DNA from: a virus
Length of the DNA: 64,000 nucleotides
IMG/VR virus record: IMGVR_UViG_3300042402_003062
Span: 5,558-69,557 of that record
Direction: 5' to 3' (one strand)
In this document: positions 21,801-63,970 of the stretch, in pieces
Layout of the letters: the number at the start of each line of letters is the position of its first letter
How positions within the stretch are numbered: position 1 is the first letter of the stretch
The notes under the pieces: generated by a model
Databases searched by the model: none
Told to the model about the DNA's origin: nothing
Seen by the model: only the letters and a program-made list of their open reading frames with translations
Position numbers and translations under genes: made by a program

Positions 21801-21835
21801 GGATTTTTCCTTAGCTCCACTCTAAGGACTTAATT

Positions 21836-26659: not shown

Positions 26660-26714
26660 TTCAGATGCTACAGCAATGGATTGCTACTCCAACAATCACA
26701 CAAAAGGAATCAGA

Positions 26715-30956: not shown

Positions 30957-31983
30957 TAACTACTAGCCTAGCAGCTTAGTTATAGCGCCTTCATACAGTA
31001 ATGTATGTCGAATAATTGTATATATGCTGGAAACCCGTAGTATTAATTTACCGGCAATCAGCAGACCAAGATATTAAGTTTTGTCTAAGTAGAACCCTGG
31101 TACCAGTACCCAAAACAAAGGAGTTTTATATGACAAAAATAATTACTGATTTTCCAAACTACTCTATCAATATAGAGGGTGCAGTAGTCAACACAGTAAC
31201 AAACACAACCAAAAAAGCATGGTTAGGAAAAAATGGGTACTATCATGTAGACCTATATAATAATAATATGAATAAAAAAGTAGCAATTCATAGATTACTT
31301 GCTATTCACTTTATACCTAACCCAGACAATAAACGAACAGTCAACCACATAGATGGAGATAAAACTAACAACACTTTATCAAATCTAGAATGGGCATCAG
31401 ACTCTGAAAATATTCAACATGCGTATGATAATGATCTTAATAGATGTACTACTAAGAAAATATCAGAAGACGCTATGGATGAAATTTTAGTTCGTTTTTA
31501 CAATGGGGAAAATTTAACAACTATTGTTAAGGATTACTCATTCAGTTTACCTACTTTAAGCACATATTTAGAAAAATATGTTATTTCTAAAGGAGAGCTG
31601 GACAAATTTAGTAATACGAAAAAAGAGCAGAAATTTAAACGAGCAGCTACAGCTAATCATAATAAATCTGCGATTACGGGAACTAGCTTGACTGACCCAG
31701 AGGATATTATTAAGTTTAACAGCTTATCAGAAGCATCTAAAGTATTAGGAAAGTCCACAAGTGGACCTATTTCTAATTGTTTGTCAGGTAGACAAAAGTC
31801 AGCTTATGGTTATAGTTGGAAACGATCTTGATCTCAACGACTATCCCGCAAGGGAGTAGGACCAAGTGGTCCGAAACGTACAACAACCAGAAATGGTTGA
31901 TGATATAGTCTAGCCTGTATAGAAATATGCAGATGCACGTAATGGTGCTGGCATGAACTAACGACTCATGTTGAATATACGCG
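30957..31983 (+). mobile_element. group I intron in the DNA polymerase gene
   Basis: The 5' exon ends in T and the intron ends in G; splicing restores FGLA-Y-GAY. P ATGCTGGAAA 31024, Q AATCAGCAG 31056, R TCAACGACTA 31834, S GATATAGTCTA 31902. Confidence 0.92.
31130..31831 (+). CDS. intron-encoded HNH homing endonuclease (I-HmuI-like, with NUMOD domains)
   Basis: IHRLLA...VNHIDGDKTNN...NLEW...NIQHA; C-terminal FNSLSEAS...SAYGYSW; AAGGAG RBS. Confidence 0.92.
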   Translation: MTKIITDFPNYSINIEGAVVNTVTNTTKKAWLGKNGYYHVDLYNNNMNKKVAIHRLLAIHFIPNPDNKRTVNHIDGDKTNNTLSNLEWASDSENIQHAYDNDLNRCTTKKISEDAMDEILVRFYNGENLTTIVKDYSFSLPTLSTYLEKYVISKGELDKFSNTKKEQKFKRAATANHNKSAITGTSLTDPEDIIKFNSLSEASKVLGKSTSGPISNCLSGRQKSAYGYSWKRS

Positions 31984-32729: not shown

Positions 32730-33106
32730 GCTTTTTTAACGTACATAATAACTCGCTTAATACCATACACCAAAATCAAGCTATACATAGCCAAGATGTT
32801 GTCGGCCCTCGAGTTACAATAGATGCGTCTTTTCGACTATCTAATGAAGAAGCTATTCAATTAAAATTTGCTCAAACTTTGGATGAGGTAGTGATGCATA
32901 AGCTATGTGCAGAATTAATTAAACGGGCTCTAAGAGAAAATTTAATAACCATCCACAGGCATATAACTCCGTTTGATCCTAAATCTAGTATACAACATTA
33001 CACAACTTTTTACACAACTTTAACAATAATAAAACCAATAACGGAAAAGGATTCAAATGAAAATCGAACAACAAATTTTATCGGACCTGCAACGGCTTAT
33101 CGTTGA
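32726..33106 (+). CDS. hypothetical protein
   Basis: ATGA overlap, 126 aa. Confidence 0.5.
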   Translation: MSFFNVHNNSLNTIHQNQAIHSQDVVGPRVTIDASFRLSNEEAIQLKFAQTLDEVVMHKLCAELIKRALRENLITIHRHITPFDPKSSIQHYTTFYTTLTIIKPITEKDSNENRTTNFIGPATAYR

Positions 33107-35312
33107 ATATGAAGACCAACTAGAATTTCTTCAAAATCGCAGTATGGGCCACTTTGACACAACCGTTCTACCCACCGTTCTTCAAGATATGATCCGTATT
33201 GCAAATGCAAAAACACCATCATTCTCAAATATCTCAGCGCTTGCTGTATCCAATTTTGTGCTATCGCATATGTTTGGTCAAGTACGTCCACACCTAAACG
33301 ATGGTGTATACTCAGACGATCCAATTGGTCTTAACACCTATGCAATCATCCTAGCACGTTCAGGATCTGGTAAAGACTCCACTTATCAAGCTTTGTTAAA
33401 AACCACTCAATCGGCTCTTGCATTAGTGAAAACTAAACAAGACCAAGAAGCAACAGAAAAAGCTCGTGCTAAGTATATCCGGGAAATGAGCCGCGCCAAC
33501 GCTAATTTTGACGAATCTAAAGTCGTCCCAGATGACTACATTCATTCCATCCCAAAACCTGAAGCAACGATTACATCCCTTGCATCTACTCGGGGTGGAC
33601 TCAGTACGTCGCTGAATCGTATGGCTCACTCATCATTCGGAATCAAATCTTTATTTGCTTCAGAACTGGCTTTAGCCATTCAGTCAAATCCAACAGTCCT
33701 TGAAGTTCTTGAATTGTTCTCAGTTTTGTTTGATATGGGACAATCAGTTAGCCCAGAATTCAAAACTCAGGAGTCTAAAGAAGAGTCCATCCAGGGGATG
33801 TTTCCAAACTTACTTGGTATTTCTTCACCAGCCCCATTTTATCAAGAAGGCAATGTCCGTAAATTACTTGTACCAATGTTGCTTACGTCTCTTGCCAGAC
33901 GAATCACCGTTGTGTTTAGTACAGCCAAAGAGGAATTTGAAAACGAGTCAATCGCAGTCAATATCCTTGAACAACGTAAACTTCAGGATCAAGCAAGAGT
34001 CACATTACAAAATCTCACACCAAAGCTTGATGAGCATTTCCATGTATGTATGCGCGGTTTATTAAGCAACCCATCTCTGATGTTTGATGATGATGCATCT
34101 AATATATACAATGACTACAAATCCTACACACAACAAAAGTCAAAGTACTTACTACTTAAGGATGGAGATTCTGTCGAAGGTATTGAAATGTCTGGTCGAG
34201 CATTCAAAATGGGTCGTATTGCAGCATTATGGACTATCGCACAAAACAAGTACATTATCGATGAAGCCACTCTCAAAGCAGCAATTTATTTTGTGGACTA
34301 TACCGCATCTCATTTAGTTCGCTTTGCAGCCACTCTTGCACTCAAAGATTATGAATTATTCATTGATGACTGGCAGCAAGGTTTCTTTGAAAACAATTTA
34401 CCAGTCGATCAAGCAATCACTCGTGGATACATCACCACTAAACAGCTCAATGAACAATCTCTTCGTAACTTCCTAAAGCCTGTAAACTCACGCTTAGAAG
34501 GTACAGCAACCGTCTCATATAACGACAAGTCTAATGCTTTTGTATTCACACCAGTTACCAAAAATCTTGAGTCTACTTATACATATCGCGCAGTACCAGG
34601 AATTGTGGTTGACAAACCATTGTCAAACATTGCTAAGGACAAACCTATTGAAGCTCTTGGTAAATTACTATCGCTTAGCTGTACATTCAACCCATTTGCA
34701 GACACTTCTGCTAAATTCGTTGTCATACCACTTAACGGAGCAGTTTTACCAGCAGCATTACTTAGCAAGTACTTAGAGTCTGTACACCACTTTATGACCG
34801 AGTCCACACTAATTCTGCCTCTCAACGCAGTTATTACTACTGAGCAGTATAAGTATGTCACAATGAGCATTGCTAACCAGTTAATGATCAAAGCTGCCCC
34901 AACAGATTGTGAGGCCGGCTCCCTACATCACGGGTCTACAAATGCCCTAGTATTTAGCTCGCCACATACAACACCAAATTTATTTGACGTTAGTGGTATT
35001 CTTGGGAATTTTGCTTCAGGACTGGACACACCAATTCTTTATACCAAACCGGATCTCAAACCAACTCCAATTACTATCGCAAAATACCTTAGAGATGACA
35101 TCTACCCACACAAGCAAGCACTAGTCGAAGCTCTTGACGCGGCTAGTTTGCCAATCTTGTTATTTAGCTCTATTGTGCACGATATGTTCGCACACTCCGT
35201 GGAGCCGGAACGCATTGCAGAATTTGTTAACTCGGTAAATTCATTGCTCACAGAGTCATTTCCAGAGGATGTTATCACTACTTACATCCTAAACCCATTT
35301 AACCAAATTTAG
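33057..35312 (+). CDS. DUF3987-like P-loop helicase with a degenerate primase-like C terminus
   Basis: ARSGSGKDS Walker A, ASEL and LARR; adjacent to the primase. Confidence 0.65.
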   Translation: MKIEQQILSDLQRLIVEYEDQLEFLQNRSMGHFDTTVLPTVLQDMIRIANAKTPSFSNISALAVSNFVLSHMFGQVRPHLNDGVYSDDPIGLNTYAIILARSGSGKDSTYQALLKTTQSALALVKTKQDQEATEKARAKYIREMSRANANFDESKVVPDDYIHSIPKPEATITSLASTRGGLSTSLNRMAHSSFGIKSLFASELALAIQSNPTVLEVLELFSVLFDMGQSVSPEFKTQESKEESIQGMFPNLLGISSPAPFYQEGNVRKLLVPMLLTSLARRITVVFSTAKEEFENESIAVNILEQRKLQDQARVTLQNLTPKLDEHFHVCMRGLLSNPSLMFDDDASNIYNDYKSYTQQKSKYLLLKDGDSVEGIEMSGRAFKMGRIAALWTIAQNKYIIDEATLKAAIYFVDYTASHLVRFAATLALKDYELFIDDWQQGFFENNLPVDQAITRGYITTKQLNEQSLRNFLKPVNSRLEGTATVSYNDKSNAFVFTPVTKNLESTYTYRAVPGIVVDKPLSNIAKDKPIEALGKLLSLSCTFNPFADTSAKFVVIPLNGAVLPAALLSKYLESVHHFMTESTLILPLNAVITTEQYKYVTMSIANQLMIKAAPTDCEAGSLHHGSTNALVFSSPHTTPNLFDVSGILGNFASGLDTPILYTKPDLKPTPITIAKYLRDDIYPHKQALVEALDAASLPILLFSSIVHDMFAHSVEPERIAEFVNSVNSLLTESFPEDVITTYILNPFNQI

Positions 35313-35343
35313 CTCATTCACCCTATTTTGTAAGGAGGTATTT

Positions 35344-36123
35344 TTGGACATTCGCTTATCAATTCATCCAGTCCCAGGTTTATCTAAAGATGAACGAGCA
35401 GATTTCACACACTTTACCAAGTACTTTCAATGTTCGTTTAAACAGCTCATTCATCTATTGACTAAAGACTACATGTACTCTCCATTTGCATTCTTAGGAA
35501 ATCATAGATTAACCTCAAATATTTGTTCAACTACACAGTTTGTTGTTATTGATGTTGATAGCACCAGTCTCACCATCCACCAGAGGCTTACCCAACTCCT
35601 TGATGAGGACTTACAATGTATCATTGGAACAACAAGTTCTCAGCATAATTTAACCAAATATAGGGTATTATTACCTCTTTCGACACCTGTCACACGTGAC
35701 GAATATCGCAGACTTATTAAAGGTATTCAGTACCATGGATTAATATCTGATATGGATCCAGCTAGTGCAAAACCTGCTCAAGTATTTTACTCATATGCGG
35801 ACTCAATTGTCCTATCAAGTTTCAGTGGTCATCCCCTCATAGTCGAGGATTATATCCTCCCACCACCACAACCCGGTGAACATAGCCCAGATATATCTAT
35901 GGACTTATCTGAACTTATTGACCAAGTGCCATTCTACCCATACGCTTCCAAAGGCAGTCGTACCAGAGTCCTACTTCGTGCAGGATTTGAACTACTGGAA
36001 CTTGGAGCCTCAGACCAACAATTGGAGCAAGCTTTAACTCAGTTAAATCAACGCTTCTTAGTACCAAAAGATCAACACTCCCTAAAAAGACGAGTAATCA
36101 ATTTTATTAAATCAAGGAGGTAA
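35344..36123 (+). CDS. AEP/PrimPol-type primase
   Basis: FVVIDVD, TTSSQH...KYRVLLPL, D......QVFY and a PriCT-like GSRTRVL; TTG start after TAAGGAGG. Confidence 0.7.
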   Translation: MDIRLSIHPVPGLSKDERADFTHFTKYFQCSFKQLIHLLTKDYMYSPFAFLGNHRLTSNICSTTQFVVIDVDSTSLTIHQRLTQLLDEDLQCIIGTTSSQHNLTKYRVLLPLSTPVTRDEYRRLIKGIQYHGLISDMDPASAKPAQVFYSYADSIVLSSFSGHPLIVEDYILPPPQPGEHSPDISMDLSELIDQVPFYPYASKGSRTRVLLRAGFELLELGASDQQLEQALTQLNQRFLVPKDQHSLKRRVINFIKSRR

Positions 36124-50440: not shown

Positions 50441-53400
50441 TTATTCAATTACTGCTCGCACCAAGCCACCTTCAAACAGTGTGCCAAATATATTTTCCGG
50501 TCGAGTCCATAGACTTGTTTTATGTGACAACGTTCCGATCGGATCAAAAAACTGATCTAATGGTGTTTCTACATTGATACCAGTCAAACTTTGAGCTGTT
50601 TCAGTCATCGCTACTGTCAAACCTTTCGTTGCAACCATTCTAGCCATAGCAGGTAAAATCCTGAAGAAGTATTTAGTAAACACCAATCCCCCCATATCAT
50701 TGGCGTATTTTATGTACTTATTATCCAAATATCCATAGTTTACATGTAACCCATCCATATGACTTAACCAACTCTTTGGAATATCTCCGCTCTTGAAAAA
50801 TACCTCCATCTCCTTCTCTGTTGCACCAAACAACAACTCCCCAATTACCTGATTACTTTCACCTCTATTTCTTAGCTTTACTGCTTGCTCCTTTGCGTCC
50901 ATCAGTATTATCATTTTGTTAATCGCATCTGAATACGTAGTTGCTTTCATAATTGAATCATGTATCGCAGTATCTTTTCGTAAATAAATTACATCTACTA
51001 CTGACTTCAGTATATTTCTACCCCGCTTATCCTCCGCTTTTTTAAGCATCTCATTTATTTTACCTTCAATAATCCCCTCTTTATCAAAGTAAGACGTATT
51101 TAAGTCTTCAAATATTACATTGTACTGTCCATCTTCAACTATCACATGCACTGGGTTTGCACGCATACTAGCGTCTAACGCAGCAATTCTTCTGTCCAAC
51201 CCTTTCTCACCAGCTCTGCGTTTCAGATCCAGGTCAATACGTTCTCTACGGAGCTTTTGGTAGTCATTCATCATACCCCAAACTTGTCGATACTTATTCA
51301 TGTACGTCAACGGATTTTTAAACGATGTGTACTGCAGCGCAATGAACATATTGGATATATTATTACCAACTACTGTTGATCCTGTAAACGCTACTATCTG
51401 TAATTTCCAGTTACGCAACAACTCCATTACAATCTGCTCAAATTTCTTCGCAACCAGTTGTCGTTTTTTACTATCTCGTATCCACGGTGCATTGATTATA
51501 CTCGCATCGTGATACCCAAAAAAGTCCGTTAACATCGTTTCTGTAACCATTAGTGGTTCTTTTTTCTTGTTAATTTCAGATTTTATGTAGTACGGAAGCA
51601 TGTCCCAATACTCTTTGAATTTGCCTTCACTTCTTGGCCCAATTTCCACAAACTTGTGCTCTGCATCTGTTTTATACATCTGGTGGAATCTTTTCAAATA
51701 CGCTAATGATGCATAATTACTCAACATAGCTTGTTGCTTATGTGTTAAGTTTGCCACAGTTGCCGCAACAGTCGCAATTATGTCATTATCCATTTCCATC
51801 AGCAATGTTTTATCAGCATGCGCCACTCGGATTCTATAGTCATATATCTCACCCATTCCGCTACGTTCTGGGACCAATGAGCTCTTCGCGCCACCTTTGC
51901 GTTTGCGTAACATCTCGAGTCTGACGTCTACATCTTCCTCCGTGTATTCTGTCAATTTCATCAACATACTTTTAAGGCTATCCCCTTCATTGGATAGTTG
52001 TACTACTTTAAGGAGTCCTTCACTATATTTTGTATCCAGACTATCACCAATCATCACGTATATTGGTTGCCCAGCAATTTCACTTAACTCTTGGTCTTTA
52101 CCCAAGTTATGTATTTTTGCTTTGCTTAATGCTTTCATCTCTGCTTCGCCCACCAAGTATCGTTTTCTGTCTTTGGTGTAGTACTCTTGCTTTGCACCTT
52201 TTGTCACATATAACTTGTTCCCTTTATATGCTTTTTCAAGGATCATTGCTTGTTCCTCACGAACTAATTCCATAGCAGCATCAAGTCCCTTTGGGTTCTG
52301 CTCTAGTGCTTGCAGTGCTCCGGCTCGTTCTTCAGCACTAAGCTTTTGCAATGCTCGTAGTGTAATAGCTTTGTCAATATTAGCTATTGTTTCTTTAGTG
52401 GAATTTGCTGTTCGCTCAAACGCTATTTGATGTGCATTGGTATACACATTTGCTGAGTTACTGTAGTTATTAACTAGTAACTCTGCCGTATTATCAATAT
52501 CTAGTATCACCGTAGGGCTTAATCCTGCAGTTGACTCATTTAGCTCTCGCTCAATCTTTGCGTCATCCCGTAAATATTCTGCTATCGCAGCACTGTCCCC
52601 AAGCATTTGTGCATCTGCATCTATCAGCACGCGTTTAGCAGCCTCTCTAGCCCCTTTCTGAACTTTACCCAATCCATATACCTCATCCAGGTTTTTGGCT
52701 GTCCTCTGGCGTATCGCAACAACTTCCTTCTCTACAAACTCTTTACTATGTCGAAACATTTCGTAGAATTTTGCAATATCCGGGTTTTTCATATTTTTTG
52801 CAAGACTGCTGAACACATTGTTTTGTAGGGCAAAACTTCTGGCTTTCGCCAATGCTTTAATATTCCACAACTTTGCAACAATCTGTTTAGCCTTACCACG
52901 TTTTGTATTTTCGATCATTTCTTGATATGTTTTGTACTCACCATCAATCTCTTCAGTTATCTTTGCAATTTTTGAATCTGTACGAGCAATGGTATCAAGT
53001 AGTTTTTCATAGCTACTTCGATCCTCTAATCGCTGCACTCTATGTTCCACTTCAAGTAACTTGTGCACCATACTTACAGCATGTTCATGTGCACTCTTTC
53101 CATCAAGCATTATGTCAGCATAAGCCTTATTCACCAAAGCTACCAATTGATTCCATAGTTTTGCCCACATACGCCCTTTTTCTTCAATAGGGCTCAGCAA
53201 CTCCAGCTTTTCTGTAGTACTGATGCCAATTAGTCCACGTACTAAGGCCTGATTAGTTGTTGCATGTGCTAAGAACTCATCAATCGGCCAATCTTTATTG
53301 TTGAATGCATAGTTCCACTGTCCAACAGCTTCATCAATTTGTGTTTGTGTAGGAGTTTCTATCCCCTCAAGGAATACTTTGTACCCTGCTCCATCATACT

Positions 53401-54208
53401 TTTTGTTTAGCTCTGCTTTCATAGCAGTACGGAACTGATCTGCTTTATAGGCCAAGACATCATTATTCTTAATCGCATTTTTCATAAGTACGTGTTGCAT
53501 TTCTTCAGCAAGAATTTCAGTATGTGTACGAAGTCTTGTATTACCTATCATCAGACGAATCTTGCCATTTTGTGGATTAGCATCACCGAATGCTTTAGTC
53601 GATTCATCCAACGCTTTGAAGAATTCTACATTCAGATCAATATCTTTTCCGGCTTCTTGCAGGACCCCCTCATACATCTTGAAAATGTTTCCTAAGTAAT
53701 CTTTGAACTCTGGGGATAATTTATCCCCGTCTAAGGCATGCACATCAGCAATTAGGGTATCCATGTTTTCCAGCAATGTACCACTAATTTCATTCACCTT
53801 CAGCTTGGCTTTAAATTCTGTCCCTTCTTTGGCACTACCAAGGACTTTCTTTTCCAATATTACATAGTGCGATCCATCAGTTGTTACACCATCTTTTAGG
53901 TTAATTTTATATGCTCCACCATTAATTGTCACAACATCTTCTGATACTGCAGAAGCATTACGCACTGTCACAAATTTTGCGGTGTATCCATCAATTGTTT
54001 GGATCATTAATCGTTGCCCAACCAATTTTTGGCTATGGTCTATAAACGAATGAATTCTTTGTGATGGCGCAAAATACTTCCCAGTTTTACGCTTACGCCC
54101 CTCTGCTTCAGCCATTCGTTTACCGTAATTTGCTCGATCAACTACTCTGTCCAAGTAGCTTATATCATCATTATCTTTGATCAATTCATTTAGTGCAGCA
54201 CATTCCAT
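50441..54208 (-). CDS. virion protein equivalent to the C-terminal part of N4 vRNAP (part C)
   Basis: Degenerate zincin EILAEEMQH...DEFLAHATTN, plus FFGYHDASI and VNY...YANDMG..FTKYFFRI, resembling the vRNAP C terminus. The only Cys is residue 3. Confidence 0.7.
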   Translation of the reverse strand: MECAALNELIKDNDDISYLDRVVDRANYGKRMAEAEGRKRKTGKYFAPSQRIHSFIDHSQKLVGQRLMIQTIDGYTAKFVTVRNASAVSEDVVTINGGAYKINLKDGVTTDGSHYVILEKKVLGSAKEGTEFKAKLKVNEISGTLLENMDTLIADVHALDGDKLSPEFKDYLGNIFKMYEGVLQEAGKDIDLNVEFFKALDESTKAFGDANPQNGKIRLMIGNTRLRTHTEILAEEMQHVLMKNAIKNNDVLAYKADQFRTAMKAELNKKYDGAGYKVFLEGIETPTQTQIDEAVGQWNYAFNNKDWPIDEFLAHATTNQALVRGLIGISTTEKLELLSPIEEKGRMWAKLWNQLVALVNKAYADIMLDGKSAHEHAVSMVHKLLEVEHRVQRLEDRSSYEKLLDTIARTDSKIAKITEEIDGEYKTYQEMIENTKRGKAKQIVAKLWNIKALAKARSFALQNNVFSSLAKNMKNPDIAKFYEMFRHSKEFVEKEVVAIRQRTAKNLDEVYGLGKVQKGAREAAKRVLIDADAQMLGDSAAIAEYLRDDAKIERELNESTAGLSPTVILDIDNTAELLVNNYSNSANVYTNAHQIAFERTANSTKETIANIDKAITLRALQKLSAEERAGALQALEQNPKGLDAAMELVREEQAMILEKAYKGNKLYVTKGAKQEYYTKDRKRYLVGEAEMKALSKAKIHNLGKDQELSEIAGQPIYVMIGDSLDTKYSEGLLKVVQLSNEGDSLKSMLMKLTEYTEEDVDVRLEMLRKRKGGAKSSLVPERSGMGEIYDYRIRVAHADKTLLMEMDNDIIATVAATVANLTHKQQAMLSNYASLAYLKRFHQMYKTDAEHKFVEIGPRSEGKFKEYWDMLPYYIKSEINKKKEPLMVTETMLTDFFGYHDASIINAPWIRDSKKRQLVAKKFEQIVMELLRNWKLQIVAFTGSTVVGNNISNMFIALQYTSFKNPLTYMNKYRQVWGMMNDYQKLRRERIDLDLKRRAGEKGLDRRIAALDASMRANPVHVIVEDGQYNVIFEDLNTSYFDKEGIIEGKINEMLKKAEDKRGRNILKSVVDVIYLRKDTAIHDSIMKATTYSDAINKMIILMDAKEQAVKLRNRGESNQVIGELLFGATEKEMEVFFKSGDIPKSWLSHMDGLHVNYGYLDNKYIKYANDMGGLVFTKYFFRILPAMARMVATKGLTVAMTETAQSLTGINVETPLDQFFDPIGTLSHKTSLWTRPENIFGTLFEGGLVRAVIE

Positions 54209-54223
54209 TTAACAGCCTTCTTT
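54200..54223 (-). repeat. gene-junction motif, copy 2 (KEGC*MEC)
   Basis: AAA GAA GGC TGT TAA ATG GAA TGT; 21 of 24 nt identical to 56834-56857. Confidence 0.9.
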
Positions 54224-56842
54224 GAGCAATTTTTGCACGGCTTCATTCTCCGTACGTTCTCGGTCTTTGAGGTGAATTGTACCCATGTTTTGTTTAGCTT
54301 TGGCTTCCGTAACCATCTGATCTTTTACTTGAACATCAGACATCACAGTTTTAGTAAGTGCATCAAATGCTTCTTTATTTGCTATACCTATACCAAACTT
54401 AGTACCCTTTACAGCAAAGCTTATATGTGGGTATGGATATGGGAATTTAGTTCCTAGCTCTTTGTTCACTGCGTCAATTAGGGCATTTACCCCAGGAGCA
54501 TCTACTAACTGAATCATAGCCTCTTCATGTACCATATGTTTACCTAAGTCTTGATTGGCCCAATCTTTAAACATTTCTATATCTCGCTCTATTTTGTATA
54601 CTTCAGGACGCTCTGTATAGCTTAAGTCTGCTTTCTCTATAAGCTTTTGCACTATTCCAGCCTTTTTTGGGTCCTCTTCAAATATTTTCTGCAATTGCTT
54701 ACCTTCAGGAAAACCCCACACTGTTAAGTGGGTCTCTTCTTTTGGAGTAAATCCAGCAGGAATATCTTTAGCAGCAGAAGGGATTTTTACTTTTATCAAC
54801 AAGGATTTAGACTTTGGACTAAATCGTGGGCCTTCTGCTTTTTTCTCAATTGCTTTCACTAGCTCATAAATTTTATCAGCGTAGACTTGACCTTCTACAC
54901 CAAACAATACTTGTTTAATTTTGTCAATCACACGTTGTAGCAAACTACGCATATCATTTCCAATTAACTTCTCTAACTCTACCTTTACATCTGGCTCAGC
55001 CATTAGAACCGCTACATTTTCTTGCAACAATCCTAACTCACCATTTTTACTATCCCAAGTTAATCGCTCGTTAAGCATATACACATCTATGCCTTCTACT
55101 CCACCACGCACTACCTTATCAAGTTTGCTACGTACTTGAGCCATCATCTTGCCAAGTCGTACCACATCTGTATCCTTTTGATTCGACTCCAGCCAACGAG
55201 CTGTTTTATCATGCGCTATCTCATGGGCCAAGTATACAGCACGTTCTCCGGCTGTTGCATCTTTGTCAAGTGTTATCGTACCATCACTCCAGTGGAACAT
55301 ATTCCCTTCTTCTACTGTCACATCTGGATTTTCCGTTAGATATGCTTTGTTATTAGCTTCTATTACAGCAATCTCTTCTTCAGTTATATTTTGCTCAAAT
55401 GTTTCACCTGCCCCAAGAGCCATTTCATAATTACTAGTAGCTGCTTGCGATGCTTCTTGGGCAATTGCAGCAATTTCAGCTCTTGTCATTGACATTAGCT
55501 TTTGTAACAATTCCTTTTCTACTTTAGTTACCTTTTTAGAATCAAATGTTAATGTTTTTTTCACGACGCGTTTTAATGAGTTTAGCTCTATCTTATTTTT
55601 AAGCAGTTGCTGCCAAAATTCTCCAGACTCACTAACTACCGCTCTATCTCGATTTCTTTTAAATGGAGTACCATCTGCATTTACTTCTCCATAAGATTTG
55701 TCAATTACATAGCTCCACTCGGCTTCGTATTCTTCTAGCATCTTCTCTAGATCACTAACTTTTAATTTAGTATTGTCCCCAGCAAATACTTCCATAATTG
55801 GACCTGTAGCTAGAATAGGTTCTACTTCAACTATACTAACAGGAGTTTCAGAAGTGCTTCTTTCTTTTTGTAACTTATCTCTAATCTGCATCAATAATTC
55901 TGGAAATTTATCTTTCCATATTTTATCTGCCACATTATGAGTTAAGTCTGCAGTTCCTGTACTAAGTAATAACTTGGTTGCTTCAGGATTTTGTTCAAAT
56001 GAACGCAACATTATTGCAGGCATAAGTGTTTTAGTATTCCAGTTATTTATAGTTTTAGTACCTTTAGTACCTCGTGCAACTAATCCACCGTTGTTCCAAT
56101 TTTTATTATATACATCCTCTTCAAGTCCAGTCCCACTCTTTAGTGACTGATAGGCATGCTCTACACTCTGAAATGTGCGACCTTGCATAGTAAATGGACG
56201 AACTGCTAAGTTACTTAACTCTTCATACCCATTTTTATCTTTTGAGTACACATTAATAGATTCTACTGGGGCTACTGAAGGCTCTACAACAGTCTGAGGC
56301 ACTATCTTTAGTGCACCAATTTTATCTTTATTCTGATTTATCGCATAAAGCAATACTAGGGCATGGGATAATGGTTGCCCTACAGCAGTTCCTTTATAGT
56401 ATAACTTTTTCTTACCATCCAGAACGGCTCTAATCTGTGGTATAGCTCGGAATGTTTTCTGCCTAGCCTCTTCCAAGGCTGTTAAGTCCCCGGTGTAGCT
56501 AGCAGGTACAATATTCCGTACCAACCAATCATAGTACATAGCCGATAGATCTCCATCGGATTTAGTATTAACATTAGTACGTTCAAATGGATTTCCAAAG
56601 AATGAGTTTGGCCCGCGCATTCCCCACACATCATTTGTTGCTTTTTTAGGTCCACCTACAATCATCTCTGCGTATGGAGCCACAGCTTTTGTTAATGCCT
56701 CAATCATCGCCGAATACGATTTATCTTTGATAATTTTTGGAAAGCTATTATCTTTAATTTCTTGGACACGTTTTTGTATCTCAGGGTACGCTTCCAATGC
56801 TAGGATCAATTTATCCACATACTCAGGTATTCTGCATGCCAT
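54209..56842 (-). CDS. polyvalent virion protein (part B): DUF4326-like, NADAR, zincin and 2H phosphoesterase domains
   Basis: RGPNSFFGNPF; LSNL...FQSVEHAYQ...LLSTG...LLMQIR; HEIAH; HLT...HIS. Cys only at residues 3 and 877. Confidence 0.7.
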   Translation of the reverse strand: MACRIPEYVDKLILALEAYPEIQKRVQEIKDNSFPKIIKDKSYSAMIEALTKAVAPYAEMIVGGPKKATNDVWGMRGPNSFFGNPFERTNVNTKSDGDLSAMYYDWLVRNIVPASYTGDLTALEEARQKTFRAIPQIRAVLDGKKKLYYKGTAVGQPLSHALVLLYAINQNKDKIGALKIVPQTVVEPSVAPVESINVYSKDKNGYEELSNLAVRPFTMQGRTFQSVEHAYQSLKSGTGLEEDVYNKNWNNGGLVARGTKGTKTINNWNTKTLMPAIMLRSFEQNPEATKLLLSTGTADLTHNVADKIWKDKFPELLMQIRDKLQKERSTSETPVSIVEVEPILATGPIMEVFAGDNTKLKVSDLEKMLEEYEAEWSYVIDKSYGEVNADGTPFKRNRDRAVVSESGEFWQQLLKNKIELNSLKRVVKKTLTFDSKKVTKVEKELLQKLMSMTRAEIAAIAQEASQAATSNYEMALGAGETFEQNITEEEIAVIEANNKAYLTENPDVTVEEGNMFHWSDGTITLDKDATAGERAVYLAHEIAHDKTARWLESNQKDTDVVRLGKMMAQVRSKLDKVVRGGVEGIDVYMLNERLTWDSKNGELGLLQENVAVLMAEPDVKVELEKLIGNDMRSLLQRVIDKIKQVLFGVEGQVYADKIYELVKAIEKKAEGPRFSPKSKSLLIKVKIPSAAKDIPAGFTPKEETHLTVWGFPEGKQLQKIFEEDPKKAGIVQKLIEKADLSYTERPEVYKIERDIEMFKDWANQDLGKHMVHEEAMIQLVDAPGVNALIDAVNKELGTKFPYPYPHISFAVKGTKFGIGIANKEAFDALTKTVMSDVQVKDQMVTEAKAKQNMGTIHLKDRERTENEAVQKLLKEGC

Positions 56843-56857
56843 TTAACAACCTTCTTT
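56834..56857 (-). repeat. gene-junction motif, copy 1 (KEGC*MAC)
   Basis: AAA GAA GGT TGT TAA ATG GCA TGC. Confidence 0.9.
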
Positions 56858-59800
56858 TAAATTCTCAAACATATCTTTAAATAGTGTTTTACCTATAGTA
56901 GTGCCAGTCATTTCGCTAGCAACTTGCTCCATTATTTTTCTAGGCCCTTTATCTCCACTTGTGAATAGATCAATAGCAAGAGCTCTAATTTCTTTAGCCA
57001 TTTTAGCACCATCTTGCTTAACAGGAGCCTCCGTAGCAACTTCCTGCACAATACCAGCTCTTACGCTATCTACTAGCCATTCAAGCCCTTCTAGCACAGC
57101 AGTATCAGCTCCTTCTTCAGCAAATACTGCGTATCGTTTATCAACTAACTCTTCTGTAGTCTTACCTTTAGCTTCATAACCTTTAATGTCTCCGGCAGCA
57201 GCGTATTGATTGACTACCAATTCTTGCTCAACCAAGTCACGTCTAGCAGTGTCTATGCTCCGTAGGGTATGAATCACATCTCCTACCAAGTCTAATACTG
57301 ACTCACCTTCTTCTACCGGTCCAAGTATACGCTCAAGGTCACCAAGTACTTGTGAAGCCATTTCAGGATCCATTTCCAAGCCTTCTCGTTTACCAAGCAT
57401 GAACTCCATTTTTTCAACGGCTTTTCCAAGCATACTATGTGTCATATTAATATCGTAGAACGACTCATTCATTTTTTGGAGTTGTTTTGTGTTCTTTGTT
57501 AAATCTGTACCCATCATCAGTGCATCATAGATATTCAATACAGCCATTACATGCCCTGTTATCATAACTGACCCATCCGCAGCATGTACTGTTGTTACAC
57601 CAATTGCTCCAACGTTAGCAACCAGCTCTTTGATTGCTTGATTATAATTTCTTGAGTACCCTGTTCCACTTTGGAAGGTGCTTGTGTTAATTGTTACGGA
57701 AATCTGGTTGGACTCACCTTCCTTATTCTCTGTTTTCCAATAATCTACCAAACCGCCTTCAATCGCTGCTTCAGTAGCGTAATAGGTACCTTCTGAAAGC
57801 ATCTCTGACTTAATATCAGTTAGCTCTGCAATTGTAAGTTCACCCATTACTCCTTTTACAGAAGTTTCTCTTCCAGCAAGTTTATCCTTCACTTTTTTGT
57901 TAAAGTTCATTTTAAAGATTGTATAGTTAACTTCTTCTACAGTTTGGAGCGCTTTTCTAAACTCAATAACCGGTCCAAATGTTGATTTGAAGCTCTCTGC
58001 AAACAAATCTCCAAGCTTTTCATCAATTGCTTTAGTAAGTAGTCCTACTTGATACTCACTCAAGTACGCATATAGCTTTTTCTCATCATCGTTTAACTCA
58101 TCTTCATTGAGTTTTGTAGATATAAGCTCACCATCTTTTATAGCGTATTTCACATACGTTGGTTTAATATCTTTTAATCCAGAAATTTCTAGCAAAGTTT
58201 CTAATTTACCTCTTGCCAATCCACCAGGAATATAGCTATTACCAACAATCAGTGACTGCGCCATTGCTTCAGTAATGTTCTTAAGCCCTGCACCATATAT
58301 AAAGATCATTACTGGGTTTTTCATGAAATTTCTCCATGCCCCACCAATAACATCATCGATTTGTGCATGAGCTTTTTTGTCAAGCAGTGTGTTTAGAATT
58401 TTTAAAGGCGCTTCATAAATATCTTTACCTTTATTTTCTTTGAATTCTCCGTGACTTGCGATATTGCTATCTCCGCCGTATACACCAGCTCGTCCTAACA
58501 TTCCTTCGGTAAATTTTGTCCAACCCATTTGCATCAGGGTAAACGCCATACCATTTGTAATACCATCTCCCTCAAGCGCTAGATTAGTTATGATTGTTTC
58601 ATCACCAGCACGGATCTTACGAAGTAATTCTACCGCTTGTACAACGTGTAGTAATGTTTTACTATCATCATGAAGTTGTGACACAGCACTTGGGTCAGTG
58701 TTTTCAAAGAGTACCCCATTCATCTCTCGAACTGATCCAAGATTAAACTCAGCATCATTCACAAGCCCTTGTAGTCGTTCGTTTTTACCCCATTTTAGAG
58801 TAAGTCCTTCAGGCCCTTTTACAATATGTACATACTTATTGCGTAGCTCTGTCAGCGCAGACTCAGGCTTTAATTTATCAATACCGATACCCATTGCTTG
58901 AGCAATTGCCAGTTCAATATGTTCTAGCTCTGCTTGGGTCACTTCTTTAGTATCAATAGTGTTCATCATATCTTCAGCTGCTACTAAAAACCGGCTAATA
59001 CCACTTGCTTGTGGATTAACAAGTTTATTAGTCATCATACTGCGCCCACTTAACGTATAATCCCAGCCTAAATAGAATTTCTGTCCATCACCAACCAGTG
59101 CATGTGCTTGGAGCATTCGCTCAATTATTAGCTCCTCTGCTTTATACTTAGCAAGTTTACTTTCCATATCCATAGCTTGTGTGCTAGCTATTAACTCTTC
59201 TAAGCTACCTAGCAATTGTTCTTTGATAATTTCCACATAATCACTACCATCTTCTGTAGTAGACATATTTTGTGCTGCATGTATATACTCTTCAAGCCCA
59301 ACAAACTCCCAAGATTGTTCTCCTTGTCTATCCAAGTAGTTTTTAGCAGGTGTTGCCAACGGTACATCGCTATTTCTAATCGTTGCATCAGCTTTCTTCT
59401 TAGCAATCGGGGTTAAGCTTATATCTCCTTCCTCTCTTGCTGTTGCAAACTCAAACACAGTACCCATCTCACCAACTTCTCGCATATAGTCTTTGCTGAG
59501 CGTTTCCAGATTCATTACACGTATACTTTTTGACTTACTTACATCTTCATCTTTTACAGCAATATGCTCATAGACAAGTTTATCATTTTTGACAAATACA
59601 ACACCTCTGCGAACAGTGTCTACATCTTTTGCTCTTTTTGGAAGTATGTTATTAATCACCAATACACCAAGAGCCATCTCTATATCCGGACGTTGTTGTA
59701 CCGTCAATTTTTTGCTCAGTTTCAGCTCTAACTCACGTAGCAGCAATCTACCAGCATTTGCACGGAACACAGCTTCAGGAACATACTTCCCACCACGTAC

Positions 59801-62800
59801 TGCCTTTTTAACGGCAGTCTTACCAACGCGAATGTTCAACTCATCATCAAACTCACCCCATAATGTTGTAAACCCATTATCTACAATATCATTCATTAAA
59901 TCATTGGTAGTTACACGCATATCAATCATTTCTTTTAGCGTGACTGCACTAGCTAGATTCATTGCTGTTTTCACAGTTGCTCGGACACCATCTTTAAGCA
60001 CTTTATACGCAGGATCTGTCAGTTCTTTAGGTTCAATTTCCCATAAATTTTCAAGAGCCACTCCACCAATTTTGATGTCTCGCAACGGATTTGTGTTATC
60101 ACCATCTTTTTGTTTTGGAAACCACTGAGCGAACCCTTCAGCTGTGCGTGCTTCAGCAAATTTCTTAAATGATCTTAAGGCACTTTCCACCATAATCTTG
60201 CCAGACTCTTTGACTTTTAGCATATTTGGCATAATGTCCATCACAGCATCAATTCCAATATCTTGTTTTAGACCAAGCATTGCACTCAAACTTTGGGTTA
60301 ATTTATTGTTAGGCTCTACAAAGTCTCCAAGCACCTCTTCCATCGGCCCACGAACTTCTTTAGCCTCATCTATCTTTTGTTGCTTTTTAGCCTTTTTAAC
60401 AGCCTGTATAGCCTCTACCTTAGCTTGTTCAGTCTTTCTGATAATACTCCCAAGCTCCATTATCTGTACACGTAAGTTATCAATCTCTTCCATCGTTTCA
60501 GTAGCAGCATCTTCTAACTTAACAATTTGTTTGTATAGTTTTGTCACAACACCTTTTAGGGATCGAATGGTGTTACGAACTTGCCCTAACAATTTTTTAA
60601 ACTCTAACTCTACTCCAGATCTCCAGTCTAGTCGATTAGCACGGAATTCTTCTTTAGCTAATCGGATATTTACAGCATGCAGTTTTGTACGCGCTTCTTT
60701 AATAGCTCTGTAGTACTCACCTTGTAACTTGAATAACACTGGAAGTTTTGATTTTTTACTTTGTATCAAAGCTTCTGTTTCACTAAGTTTATTTTCCAAC
60801 CAGATAACGTATCGTTTAGCCTTTTTAACTGCCTCTGAATCAGTTGAGTCATTAATCTCTGCTTGAGTAGGCAGTGTAGGCTCTTCATACTCTGGCTCAG
60901 CACCTTCTTTTGCAAGTTTGTACTCAGATTGTCCCTCATCACTTGTTTTAAACGCAGGAGTGGTATTAACTGGACTCACAGGAGCAGCTGGCACAACATT
61001 TGATACAGGAAGTTTAGGTTTCTTAGGTTGTTTCTTTGGAGTTTCTTTAACTACTAACAAATTACCCTCTGCATCATACATAGCATCTGGAGTATTATCT
61101 TCAATAGTTGGAGCTCTACTTGTATCCCAATCAGTACGTTCATCTAGCATCGCATCAATTACTTCTGGAGATAAGTTATTACCACGAGTTTTTTGTAACT
61201 CATGATATACACTTCTTCGAACCACAGGATCTTTTGAATTTGCTCTATCTAGCATACTTTCATGTGCAAGTTGAGAACTCCATAACTTTTCAGCCATTGC
61301 TTCAAATACCGATTTTAATGCATTACCATCTTCAAGAGTCGCTAATTTAGCGTTTATAATATCTAGCAGCTGTGCATTTTCGTACATCTTATCTACCAAA
61401 CGCCCTTTAATACCAGCGAGTCGAAATAAGTTTTTTGTACCTTTTTCATCTACTGAGTACCCAAGCACTTTTTCAATTCCACGATGAGCCACAAATTCTT
61501 GTAAATCTTCAATAGCTTTTGTCTCATCTGCTAATGGCATACCAGTACCAACAAAGGTTTCAATAGCTTCTGCATGTTCTGGAATACTCTTTTTATACTC
61601 ACCAGAATCAAGTAAGAATCCAGTCTTAGCAATCTCTGCTGTTACATCCGCAGCTGTCTTTTTACGCTTTTGTGGACCTGTTGGTGGTGCACCTTCACTT
61701 GACCCAAGTCTATTTCCTTCTGCACGCATTGCCTCTAGAGCCGATTCAATCGCACCTAGTTTTGTAGCAATCCCTGACTCTGCACTTCCCATAACTTTAA
61801 TATCTTTAATCGCCTCAACCAATGAGCTATACTGCTCCTCGCTAAGCGTTGCTATTTTAGCCATCAAGGAATTTTCTACAACAGGGTCCATATTGTACTT
61901 AGCAAGGAACTCTTTAGCTCTATCATTACTCGCCATAGAATCGAACATGGCTTTGATCTCTTCTTTTTGAGATTCAACAAATGCTAGTTCTGCCGCTCTG
62001 TTGCCTTTAGCCACTTCAACCATCTGCGCATTGATCTCTTTACGTTGTTCAGGAGTAAATTTATTTCCACCAACATCTAAGTTATGTGCTTTTGAGTAGT
62101 TTACAATCTTTTTAATAAGCATATACTCAGCAACTTGCTTCGCTTCTGGGGTAAGCCCATACACTTGAGCAATTTTATTGGTACCATCTCTGAATATATC
62201 TTCTACATTCTTTTTACCAGTCAAGGCATCTGTTTCTTTACCCATGTACCCATATTTCACTCGTGCTTCTGGGGAGAACACCAAATCAATTACAAATTCA
62301 GCAATTGTTTCACCGTATACTTCTCGTGATTTTGGATCAGTTCCAACTGAAAAGTCAGGACTTCCGACACTAGCCCACATATTTGCTTTACCATCCATGC
62401 CTAGTGGTTTTTGCACCATGTCAGGATCTGAAGTAGCGGCGCTATTCAATGCAATCTTTTCTTTTAAGTATTGCCCAGCAGGAGCAAGTAGTGTACCTAC
62501 AGCACGTGGACTTGCCATGTATCCGCCACCAGCTGCTCCTAGTAGGGTCCCGCCAATAATTGCAGATGACTCAGCATCAAGCAATTGCTTGATTGTCATA
62601 TCTTTGTACTTATCACTACCATATTTAGTATTTATTACATTAAATATTGCATCTGTACCTTCTTGTAATGACTCAACTCCCATACTTTTTGCCATCTCTG
62701 CGCCAGTTAATCCTACAGCTGTCATAAATCCTCGCGCAATCTCTTCTTTAGGCAACGCATTAGGCCCAAATGCCACACGTTTCGCAGAATAAATCTCAGC

Positions 62801-63970
62801 AATAGAAAGAGCTCGGTCAGCTAGCAAAATACTTGCTAACTTAGGAAGGTCTATCTCTCCTCCATTATTTTCTTTGTACGCTGTAATATGTTCATTTGCT
62901 CTATTAGCAAAATCTGCATTACTGAAGGTTGTTCCTTTTAGATAATGCGCCATTCGTACTGCAGGAGTTTGCATAGCCTCAAGCTTAGCGAGTCGTTCCG
63001 CCTTTACAGCAGGACTTAAGCTGCTTCTTTGCACTTGTATCATCATGTCATCAATTTTAGTATTCGTGCTTTTTAATGCTCCATTGATTGCACTTTCAGC
63101 AGCAGGTGCACTTTTCGCAAAAGTTCGTCCAGCAACTTGAGCTGCTACTTTTGTACCAATTTTTGTTACAGCTCCTAAACCTCCACCAGCACCAGCTATC
63201 TCAGCCATTCCATGCGCTATTAGGGACGGGTTTTTTGCCATTGTCAGCAAAGAATCTTGTCCGTCTTCAGTAGTAAATAATTTGTGCCATGTGGTTAGGT
63301 CTAGCAATTTTACTCCAGCATCAGTAATGCCTTGTTCAACACGTTTTTGATCGGCAGCATCAGCAGATGCGTTGTACCCAAATATGGTATCAGTACCACT
63401 AATTATTTGCTCTTTTAACTTATCATCAAACAAGTCAATATCAACTTTTTTACCAGTAATTTTATTATACGCTACCTGTGGAACATACGTAGCAAGCTCT
63501 TGGGCTGCATCAACTAACTTTACAGCTCCACCAACTGCACCACTTGCTGCTCCAGATAGTGTTTGCTGTATTTCATCAGCGGCTCTGCTGAGGAACCCAG
63601 GGTCATACTTATTGTTCTTTGGAGCGTCTTTGATCATTTTCATCATTGCTTTATTAGCAGGCTTACCAACTTCAGATACACCCAAGTATGATGTAGCATC
63701 ACCACCTTTATAGACCTCAGTACCTCGGAGCATTCCTTTTGGCTGTACTAAGTATGCTCTGTTTTTCAATGCATCTACATTACCATGTAGCGCCGCTTCA
63801 ACAGCAATTGCGTCATCTTTAAGTAGGTACATTGCCATCAGATTTGGGTCTCTGGTAGGATCCATTTGAACCTTACCTTTTTCCGTAGCAGTTTTACCAA
63901 AGTGCTTATAATTCTGTTTTACCACATCTACAGCACTAGCACCATCTCCGTAGTTGGACACATACCCCAT
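56843..63970 (-). CDS. virion-encapsidated RNA polymerase, N4 vRNAP-like (part A)
   Basis: TLSGR...NPQ, motif A EGDGITNG, motif B RNFMKNPVMIFIYGAG, motif C IYDA. 2375 aa; the only Cys is the last residue. Confidence 0.9.
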   Translation of the reverse strand: MGYVSNYGDGASAVDVVKQNYKHFGKTATEKGKVQMDPTRDPNLMAMYLLKDDAIAVEAALHGNVDALKNRAYLVQPKGMLRGTEVYKGGDATSYLGVSEVGKPANKAMMKMIKDAPKNNKYDPGFLSRAADEIQQTLSGAASGAVGGAVKLVDAAQELATYVPQVAYNKITGKKVDIDLFDDKLKEQIISGTDTIFGYNASADAADQKRVEQGITDAGVKLLDLTTWHKLFTTEDGQDSLLTMAKNPSLIAHGMAEIAGAGGGLGAVTKIGTKVAAQVAGRTFAKSAPAAESAINGALKSTNTKIDDMMIQVQRSSLSPAVKAERLAKLEAMQTPAVRMAHYLKGTTFSNADFANRANEHITAYKENNGGEIDLPKLASILLADRALSIAEIYSAKRVAFGPNALPKEEIARGFMTAVGLTGAEMAKSMGVESLQEGTDAIFNVINTKYGSDKYKDMTIKQLLDAESSAIIGGTLLGAAGGGYMASPRAVGTLLAPAGQYLKEKIALNSAATSDPDMVQKPLGMDGKANMWASVGSPDFSVGTDPKSREVYGETIAEFVIDLVFSPEARVKYGYMGKETDALTGKKNVEDIFRDGTNKIAQVYGLTPEAKQVAEYMLIKKIVNYSKAHNLDVGGNKFTPEQRKEINAQMVEVAKGNRAAELAFVESQKEEIKAMFDSMASNDRAKEFLAKYNMDPVVENSLMAKIATLSEEQYSSLVEAIKDIKVMGSAESGIATKLGAIESALEAMRAEGNRLGSSEGAPPTGPQKRKKTAADVTAEIAKTGFLLDSGEYKKSIPEHAEAIETFVGTGMPLADETKAIEDLQEFVAHRGIEKVLGYSVDEKGTKNLFRLAGIKGRLVDKMYENAQLLDIINAKLATLEDGNALKSVFEAMAEKLWSSQLAHESMLDRANSKDPVVRRSVYHELQKTRGNNLSPEVIDAMLDERTDWDTSRAPTIEDNTPDAMYDAEGNLLVVKETPKKQPKKPKLPVSNVVPAAPVSPVNTTPAFKTSDEGQSEYKLAKEGAEPEYEEPTLPTQAEINDSTDSEAVKKAKRYVIWLENKLSETEALIQSKKSKLPVLFKLQGEYYRAIKEARTKLHAVNIRLAKEEFRANRLDWRSGVELEFKKLLGQVRNTIRSLKGVVTKLYKQIVKLEDAATETMEEIDNLRVQIMELGSIIRKTEQAKVEAIQAVKKAKKQQKIDEAKEVRGPMEEVLGDFVEPNNKLTQSLSAMLGLKQDIGIDAVMDIMPNMLKVKESGKIMVESALRSFKKFAEARTAEGFAQWFPKQKDGDNTNPLRDIKIGGVALENLWEIEPKELTDPAYKVLKDGVRATVKTAMNLASAVTLKEMIDMRVTTNDLMNDIVDNGFTTLWGEFDDELNIRVGKTAVKKAVRGGKYVPEAVFRANAGRLLLRELELKLSKKLTVQQRPDIEMALGVLVINNILPKRAKDVDTVRRGVVFVKNDKLVYEHIAVKDEDVSKSKSIRVMNLETLSKDYMREVGEMGTVFEFATAREEGDISLTPIAKKKADATIRNSDVPLATPAKNYLDRQGEQSWEFVGLEEYIHAAQNMSTTEDGSDYVEIIKEQLLGSLEELIASTQAMDMESKLAKYKAEELIIERMLQAHALVGDGQKFYLGWDYTLSGRSMMTNKLVNPQASGISRFLVAAEDMMNTIDTKEVTQAELEHIELAIAQAMGIGIDKLKPESALTELRNKYVHIVKGPEGLTLKWGKNERLQGLVNDAEFNLGSVREMNGVLFENTDPSAVSQLHDDSKTLLHVVQAVELLRKIRAGDETIITNLALEGDGITNGMAFTLMQMGWTKFTEGMLGRAGVYGGDSNIASHGEFKENKGKDIYEAPLKILNTLLDKKAHAQIDDVIGGAWRNFMKNPVMIFIYGAGLKNITEAMAQSLIVGNSYIPGGLARGKLETLLEISGLKDIKPTYVKYAIKDGELISTKLNEDELNDDEKKLYAYLSEYQVGLLTKAIDEKLGDLFAESFKSTFGPVIEFRKALQTVEEVNYTIFKMNFNKKVKDKLAGRETSVKGVMGELTIAELTDIKSEMLSEGTYYATEAAIEGGLVDYWKTENKEGESNQISVTINTSTFQSGTGYSRNYNQAIKELVANVGAIGVTTVHAADGSVMITGHVMAVLNIYDALMMGTDLTKNTKQLQKMNESFYDINMTHSMLGKAVEKMEFMLGKREGLEMDPEMASQVLGDLERILGPVEEGESVLDLVGDVIHTLRSIDTARRDLVEQELVVNQYAAAGDIKGYEAKGKTTEELVDKRYAVFAEEGADTAVLEGLEWLVDSVRAGIVQEVATEAPVKQDGAKMAKEIRALAIDLFTSGDKGPRKIMEQVASEMTGTTIGKTLFKDMFENLKEGC

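Follow-up and report, generated by a model that had tools for sequence, protein, structure and literature searches.

The locus and its open reading frames

The stretch of DNA analysed here, referred to as the window, comprises 64 kb (64,000 nucleotides) and forms the 3' end of a 69.6-kb viral contig of IMG/VR (IMGVR_UViG_3300042402_003062) with an estimated completeness of 65%. At the right end of the window, three open reading frames (ORFs) abut on the minus strand in the order A, B and C (Table 1), and the middle one, ORF B, is the subject of this analysis. Judged by their matches to the PHROG profile phrog_2206, A (profile positions 803-2023, E 1e-38) and C (positions 2335-3371, E 8e-56) each constitute one half of an N4-type virion RNA polymerase (vRNAP) that is split; the search with this vRNAP profile gave no match in B. 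An initial annotation, made from the sequence alone, had placed B between the polymerase and the C-terminal part of the vRNAP, which the phrog_2206 matches of A and C bear out. It had further described B as a plug-in payload with NADAR, zincin and 2H phosphoesterase domains, and this combination was recovered by Pfam and PHROG matches and by models of the 2H and zincin domains. It is suggested that B is, with good probability, an optional and exchangeable cargo of the split polymerase, packaged in the virion and carrying three enzyme domains.

Table 1. Features of the split vRNAP locus, with positions in the window and, for B, in amino acids (aa).
Feature	Position	Strand	Description
ORF A	56843..63970	-	at least 2375 aa, 5' end off the window and contig; predicted vRNAP N-terminal region and RNA polymerase core
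Junction A/B	56835..56857	-	Shine-Dalgarno-like GAAGG, Cys codon, TAA, ATG, one codon, Cys codon
ORF B	54209..56842	-	877 aa; optional cargo module
N-terminal connector of B	56753..56842	-	about aa 1-30; M-A-C and a helix-like stretch
Extended NADAR unit	55871..56614	-	aa 77-324; core NADAR aa 196-324 with E228/K235
Middle region of B	55427..55765	-	aa 360-472; common to modules P0003 and L003_B
Zincin-like metallopeptidase domain	54773..55399	-	aa 482-690
2H phosphoesterase domain	54347..54757	-	aa 696-832; tetrad H705/T707 and H806/S808
C-terminal connector of B	54212..54283	-	aa 854-877; G-T-I-H-L-K-D-R ... E-G-C
Junction B/C	54201..54223	-	layout identical to junction A/B
ORF C	50441..54208	-	1255 aa; predicted C-terminal part of the virion RNA polymerase

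An optional and exchangeable module

A search with C returned two relatives from IMG/VR, L003 and L004, in which the middle ORF encodes 661 and 430 aa, respectively, and a metagenome scan added L008, with the ORF layout of L004, and L007, in which an A protein of 2477 aa is followed directly by C. L007 and L003 are close to each other, C being 87% identical in DNA and A 68.5% identical in protein. Relatives either lack B or carry another module in its place, as the plug-in proposal had implied, and invariance of ORF B across relatives, which had been named as a ground for refuting it, was not seen. The A protein of L007 ends in T-M-H-L-K-D-R ... E-E-C, the very tail which closes the middle protein in the other genomes, whereas in module-bearing genomes A is extended by about 50 aa, and this additional tail also closes with a cysteine. 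Because A of L007 carries the tail that ends B in the window, the insert differs from the connector-to-connector interval and, by sequence comparison, corresponds to the ~50-aa tail of A, the stop codon and the module minus its last ~25-40 residues. The notion that deletion of B would leave an intact A-C junction was therefore only partly upheld: an A-C form exists in L007, but the breakpoints lie elsewhere than at the two connectors.

In protein searches, additional modules, 382-1437 aa long, combined these ends with other contents, and among 17 profile hits were modules of 382-740 aa that also share the ends; the minimal forms (~390 aa) consist of the peptidase only. The 1437-aa metagenomic homologue P0003 combines a DprA/SLOG-like N-terminal stretch, which rests on sub-threshold Pfam and TIGR matches, with NADAR and a C-terminal HExxH motif, another cargo combination with an NAD/ADP-ribose flavour. 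Other searches were less productive: the ESM Atlas search with B aa 1-195 gave nothing usable, the IMG/VR scan with B one dubious 18-residue match, the IMG/VR scan with the zincin alignment no match, and that with the C N-terminal alignment only the two loci already known.

Junctions and connectors

At both the A/B and the B/C junction, a protein end reading L-K-E-G-C is followed by a stop codon and a protein start reading M-(A/E)-C. The two junctions have 21 of 23 bases in common, and their local alignment score of 19 exceeds that of shuffled sequences (n = 300; mean 10.8, maximum 17) by a modest margin. The statement that B bears the same connector at both ends was thus corroborated by the twofold LKEGC-stop-M-x-C arrangement, within that margin. 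In the window, the Shine-Dalgarno-like GAAGG lies 7 nucleotides before ATG; such sites are found 6-9 nucleotides before each ATG, and the equivalent junctions of the relatives carry AAGGA, GAGGAG or GGAGGA at this position. Because most of the repeat is the Shine-Dalgarno-like GAAGG before ATG, as in the relatives, the shared DNA connector, largely this site together with the stop and start codons, appears to be first of all a translational-coupling site. The relation of stop to start varies, with TAA and ATG adjacent in the window and a TAATG overlap or TAG-T-ATG in the relatives.

At the protein level, the module homologues begin with M-x-C or M-x-x-C, like the N-terminal connector of B. A tail motif, G-T-(I/M)-H-L-x-D-R, is found about 20 residues before the terminal cysteine in the window (54212-54283) and in the tails of L003_B, L004_B and L007_A, where _A and _B denote the first and the middle protein of a genome. 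All four genome tails keep its T, H, L, D and R, and the five module proteins compared (window B, L003_B, L004_B, P0003 and P0004) all keep its G, I, H, L and R. Three other accounts of the junctions were considered and dropped: stop-codon read-through or recoding, as the frame relations at the junctions differ among relatives; a split intein, as the cysteine is the last residue, so that intein-sized segments do not flank the junction; and lipidation boxes, as both a signal peptide and CaaX spacing are lacking.

The NADAR unit

The NADAR-like domain had been placed at about 55870-56250. Pfam PF08719 matches B aa 201-309 with E 1.1e-5 and 26.2 bits (gathering score 35.1), TIGR02464 matches with 28.7 bits (cut-off 73.7), Escherichia coli YbiA (PDB 2b3w) matches aa 196-324 (55871-56257) with E 2.7e-5, and phrog_1017 matches with E 8.3e-9. 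Weak matches to Pfam Phage_30_3 were also found in B, with stronger ones in the relative P0004. E228 and K235 of B lie in S-V-E-H-A-Y-Q-S-L-K, which aligns to the Glu-x6-Lys dyad of the YbiA motif; catalytic Glu and Lys residues seven apart have been described in AdfN (E36/K43; PMC11257639) and in the E. coli C7 NADAR (E88/K95; PMC11257639, PMC11543638). Of the earlier assignment, the significant matches and the dyad hold, but the scores stay under the curated cut-offs. Over aa 77-324, B is 33% identical to AgentSmith_46, a stand-alone protein of 237 aa from Bacillus phage AgentSmith, and because the match takes in that whole protein, the functional unit would include an N-terminal extension of the core. 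Together, B is predicted to carry an extended NADAR ADP-ribosyl glycohydrolase unit on the basis of significant but sub-threshold matches.

T4 AdfN (gp30.3), NADAR-Bas32 and NADAR-Bas60 all counter DarTG1 (Johannesman et al. 2024, PMC11257639). The unit in B resembles these three proteins in NADAR homology and in the Glu and Lys seven residues apart, whereas they are small, free, expressed proteins (PMC11257639) and the NADAR of B resides, with an N-terminal extension, in an 877-aa protein which is presumably packaged. By analogy, an anti-DarT1 activity of B is plausible, with the case for and against about evenly balanced.

The 2H phosphoesterase domain

The two motifs on which the 2H assignment had been based were found at exactly the positions reported, HLT at aa 705-707 (54722-54730) and HIS at aa 806-808 (54419-54427). 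Their number is unremarkable, B having three Hx[ST] motifs with 1.19 expected per shuffle, but conservation in an alignment of 72 family members is highest at H705/T707 and H806/S808; H806 is invariant there, the full HxT/HxS tetrad is present in 69 of the 72 members, and both motifs are flanked by hydrophobic residues as in the 2H superfamily (H705-L-T-V and H806-I-S-F). An exhaustive phmmer search with B aa 683-850 returned 104 proteins at E <= 0.001, 13 of them at E <= 1e-30. Pfam assigned no family to 40 of 41 short homologues and gave one weak ART-PolyVal match for the remaining one, PHROGs yielded no common family for the 72 members, and a word-index search with the 2H fragment gave no match. 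The stand-alone homologues (P0021-P0110) form a large family of ~140-250-aa proteins with a cysteine frequency of 0.34%.

The AlphaFold model of the domain is confident (predicted local distance difference test, pLDDT, 91.6). In a VIA-align comparison with 48,161 chains, ranks 1-21 were 2H-type entries (Z 7.5-4.1; next row 2.9), the fold being named in the titles of 18 of these 21 rows, that is, all except 9q2y, 6hiv_DQ and 2fsq. The highest scores were obtained for Usb1 (Z 7.5; root-mean-square deviation 3.8 over 131 aligned residues), CPDase (7.3), coronavirus ns2 (7.0), LigT-type proteins (6.9-6.7), a Burkholderia phage phosphodiesterase (6.8) and rotavirus VP3 (6.2), followed by the penguinpox cyclic GMP-AMP (cGAMP) phosphodiesterase (5.5) and Acb1 (7t27; 5.2, rank 16). 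The 2H fold proposed for B is thus sustained by the model and the fold ranking, with Foldseek E-values of 0.05 or more, and the domain is placed by modelling in the 2H superfamily, as a new and widespread family for which Pfam has no model.

The likeness to Acb1, from which an activity against the cyclic-oligonucleotide-based anti-phage signalling system (CBASS) had been deduced, did not hold: apart from the lack of a sequence match, Acb1 ranks more than 2 Z units below the top in VIA and 42nd in BFVD. Both are phage-encoded 2H folds, Acb1 with an HxT/HxT tetrad (Hobbs et al. 2022, PMC9117128), whereas the His motifs are spaced 101 residues apart in B and 69 in Acb1, and sequence similarity was not detectable in family-profile, Pfam and PHROG searches. 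An anti-CBASS activity is one of several options for the domain and, on present evidence, a rather unlikely one.

The zincin-like peptidase domain

The HEIAH motif was found at precisely the position given for it, aa 540-544 (55211-55225), and a single HExxH is unlikely by chance, with 0.014 expected per shuffle. An alignment of 11 homologues shows no variation at H540, E541, H544, N554 or E608, and the conservation of E608 points to it as a putative zinc ligand; two MAFFT alignments of the zincin fragment with long multidomain proteins, in which HExxH was misaligned, were left out. The model comprises helix 9-25, strands 30-34, 37-40 and 43-47, helix 52-74, which holds HExxH, and helix 79-100 (model numbering). 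This core topology agrees with the polyvalent zincin core described by Iyer et al., with an N-terminal helix, a three-stranded sheet and two helices (PMC5512222). A wide VIA search with the model listed 3dl1 (Z 4.8), PPEP-3 (4.5), ArdC (4.2) and lethal factor (4.1), and in a second VIA search, of the PDB, zincins made up all but 2 of the top 36 rows, including ArdC (4.5), PPEP-1 (4.5) and lethal factor (4.3), the last of which is the match reported for N4 gp50 by Iyer et al. (PMC5512222); Foldseek of the zincin model against the PDB was uninformative.

A peptidase domain belonging to the N4-type vRNAP itself has already been described (PMC5512222). The HExxH region of phi50-12 vRNAP (1985-2104) aligns to L004_B 265-373 with E 0.004, and window B is tied to the L004_B zincin solely through a shared profile; the zincin of B may be regarded as a putative paralogue of the vRNAP's own peptidase domain. 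The corresponding motif in C is A-E-E-(L/M)-Q-H, that is, E-E-x-x-H (aa 234-239; window ~53490-53510), with the zinc-binding first His replaced by Glu in all four C proteins (window, L003, L004 and L007); other vRNAPs show H-E-x-x-H at this place, among them that of Vibrio phage phi50-12 with H-E-I-V-H. Because the C motif is E-E-x-x-H in all four, the module may supply the only canonical HExxH.

Cysteines confined to the junctions

The ORFs of the locus have cysteines only at the junctions: A has one (the last residue, aa 2375), B two (aa 3 and aa 877) and C one (aa 3), and L003, L004 and L007 obey the same rule. With the cysteine frequency of 20 other ORFs of the window as background (1.04%), 46.6 internal cysteines are expected in A, B and C together and none is observed (P ~4e-21); for B alone, the absence of internal cysteines has P ~1e-4. 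Among 33 other ORFs listed, only 2, both short, lack cysteine. The single-chain vRNAPs N4 gp50 (3500 aa) and phi50-12 (3024 aa) contain no cysteine, and cysteine suppression in the ejection operon of Schitoviridae is known and has been ascribed to passage through the periplasm (PMC11445570, PMC3821669).

The terminal position of the cysteines recurs in homologues. Of 14 close 2H hits, 13 carry a cysteine among their four C-terminal residues and 9 carry one at residues 2-5, as against 2 and 1, respectively, of the 90 weaker, mostly stand-alone hits; among zincin-profile hits, the counts are 9 of 14 and 11 of 14, and most of the Cys-ended proteins have no other cysteine. In Alteromonas phage AD45-P1 (KF005317, 15624-27348), each of the two vRNAP ORFs has a single cysteine, which is the third-last residue in the upstream ORF and residue 4 in the next one. 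In the large ORF (19861-27348), which has 2495 aa when read from GTG, it is aa 2493 and the only cysteine counted; the AD45 paper counts two, from which it was concluded that the protein is not injected (PMC3821669).

It is tentatively suggested, from these cysteine patterns, that the junction cysteines form inter-chain disulfides, which would make a linear, threadable chain A-S-S-B-S-S-C; this is somewhat less probable than its alternatives taken together. Such a chain could be threaded through the tail channel in the manner of the single-chain N4 protein and would come apart once in the reducing cytoplasm, and cargo cassettes such as B would plug in by their own Cys-capped ends. No paper proposing a disulfide-stitched ejection chain was found in the literature searched, which covered few subscription journals.

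Polyvalent proteins and the role of the module

N4-type vRNAPs, zincins and 2H domains have all been named as parts of polyvalent proteins, with nucleotide-signal degradation or an RNase function predicted for the polyvalent 2H domains (Iyer et al. 2017, PMC5512222). In B, NADAR, zincin and 2H stand together in one ORF inside a vRNAP operon, the composition of a polyvalent protein, with transfer into the host presumed. The same 2H domain, at 48-61% identity, is found in vRNAP proteins elsewhere, in varied arrangements: RNA polymerase core, DUF7831, NADAR and 2H in P0012; NADAR, 2H and RNA polymerase core in P0015; 2H and the vRNAP C part in P0013; in P0027, 2H stands beside GNAT and ART-PolyVal domains. 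The N4 gp50-type vRNAP is likewise an ejected giant polymerase with a zincin-like peptidase and variable effector domains (PMC5512222), whereas its effectors are fused and those described here form a separate, optional ORF with conserved ends. B may be regarded as a free-standing polyvalent protein; vRNAPs that carry zincin and 2H domains have been known since 2017, and the separate module is a variant of them. The terms NADAR, YbiA, DUF1768, cysteine and disulfide have 0 mentions in the available text of Iyer et al. (PMC5512222). P1 DarB, T4 IPI and T4 Alt are comparable as defence-countering proteins delivered with the DNA (PMC5512222), but are unrelated to B and packaged by other routes.

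Since vRNAPs elsewhere contain these 2H and NADAR domains as fusions and B is free of internal cysteines, B would travel with the vRNAP. A, B and C would be made as separate, translationally coupled proteins, and B would be packaged and ejected with the polymerase, so that its enzymes could act before phage gene expression. In the virion, the end cysteines would probably link the chain by disulfides, to be released in the reducing cytoplasm. The NADAR unit would then remove ADP-ribose from nucleic-acid bases (damage of the DarT1 type), the 2H domain would cleave nucleotide immune signals or 2',3'-cyclic or 2'-5' phosphodiester RNA ends, and the peptidase would free domains or attack host proteins. 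The middle cassette probably serves to disarm host defences on entry.

Several observations weigh against packaged, defence-directed cargo. No more than four independent relatives of the locus came to light, and delivery of B in the virion is deduced from composition and context. The NADAR scores lie below the Pfam and NCBIfam curated cut-offs, and B has T301/H302 at the position of the third catalytic acid, with D306 and W309 kept; this acid is Glu in the YbiA type and Asp in the DarT1-linked type, and phage NADARs have His at the position (Schuller et al., PMC11543638). For the 2H domain, the PDB sequence search with the family profile gave no meaningful match, and none to Acb1 at E <= 10, Foldseek of the model against PDB and BFVD gave nothing at E <= 0.001 (best 0.05 or weaker), all VIA Z scores are below 8, and the closest structures are RNA-end and cyclic-phosphate enzymes, not Acb1. 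The zincin model has a pLDDT of 74-90 in its core half but 65 overall, channels and unrelated helical proteins were interleaved with zincins in the wide search (all Z <= 5.0), and hhalign of the zincin against the C N-terminus gave a probability of 4.4%, with the motif aligned.

The alternative that survives best accepts the delivery of B and holds that its enzymes serve RNA/NAD housekeeping or RNA repair and not an anti-DarT or anti-CBASS role. According to this proposal, RNA ends left with a 2',3'-cyclic phosphate by anticodon nucleases of the host would be healed or trimmed by the 2H domain, or the domain would be a Usb1-like RNase, and the substrate of the NADAR unit would be some other N-glycosidic compound. 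It draws on the best structural matches of the 2H model, namely Usb1, CPDase, LigT-type proteins and viral 2'-5' phosphodiesterases (Z 7.5-6.2), ahead of the penguinpox cGAMP phosphodiesterase (5.5) and Acb1 (5.2), on the two roles, RNase or signal degradation, proposed by Iyer et al. (PMC5512222), and on the riboflavin-intermediate N-glycosidase YbiA, through the TIGR02464 match. However, a Z difference of 1-2 is too small to define a substrate, an RNA ligase domain beside the 2H domain was not found in B by Pfam, PHROG and TIGR scans, and the phage NADARs that have been tested (T4 AdfN, Bas32 and Bas60) counter DarTG1 (PMC11257639). Overall, a housekeeping role is a real but unlikely alternative to the disarming of defences.

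It is considerably less probable that B is unpackaged and acts as an ordinary cytoplasmic phage enzyme encoded between polymerase genes. This would suit the stand-alone 2H (~140-250 aa) and NADAR (AgentSmith_46, 237 aa) homologues encoded outside vRNAP loci, and the packaging of B itself is deduced. Against this stand the zero internal cysteines in B (P ~1e-4), as in ejected vRNAPs, the conservation of its ends with those of A and C in a translationally coupled operon, and the in-frame fusion of the same domains into vRNAPs of other phages. An artefactual origin of the three ORFs, from a single vRNAP gene interrupted by errors of assembly or sequencing or read through in vivo, is most improbable. 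The GenBank record of AD45-P1 does flag a 'potential frameshift', but stop/start junctions are present in each of four independent contigs, where the frame relations differ, and the residues at the junctions are conserved as ends of proteins; in AD45-P1, the stop between the vRNAP ORFs was confirmed by polymerase chain reaction and two polypeptides were seen on gels (PMC3821669).

The phage and its neighbouring genes

The window encodes a large terminase, DNA polymerase, primase, helicases, ligase, ribonucleotide reductase, ClpP-like protease and PhoH. The closest isolates belong to the Schitoviridae, at an identity of only ~21%. The order of ribonucleotide reductase, ClpP-like gene and then, on the opposite strand, the split vRNAP is that of Alteromonas phage AD45-P1, and the phage is a member of the marine group which includes AD45-P1. 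In phages AltAD45-P1 to P4, the vRNAP occupies two adjacent ORFs (Garcia-Heredia et al. 2013, PMC3821669), and KF005317 marks the vRNAP region as 'potential frameshift' instead of two coding sequences. AD45-P1 resembles the window in the split vRNAP, the ribonucleotide reductase and ClpP-like genes beside the locus and the single junction cysteines, but has no middle module and only ~20-33% identity to A and C of the window.

Elsewhere in the window, the DNA primase is apparently split into adjacent ORFs of 751 and 259 aa (33057-36123), which represent the N- and C-terminal parts of phrog_2135 (positions 12-380 and 482-707). An HNH endonuclease ORF (31016-31831) directly follows a DNA polymerase ORF (both within 28844-31831), which covers only positions 628-1072 of the 1445 of phrog_17, and the arrangement may be a homing-endonuclease-associated split.

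Implications

The analysis defines a new and widespread 2H family, with 104 homologues and no Pfam model. If true, the disulfide proposal would describe a redox-cleavable modular protein-delivery chain and would turn an old observation, the cysteine-free vRNAPs, into a directly testable hypothesis on the order of split ejection proteins, with the cultured marine phage AD45-P1 at hand for testing the junction-cysteine idea. The occurrence of close relatives without the module, or with different ones, points to a natural plug-and-play exchange of presumably pre-packaged enzyme cargo on an injected phage polymerase. It also places a NADAR among presumed virion-delivered cargo, where it could protect the incoming DNA before gene expression.

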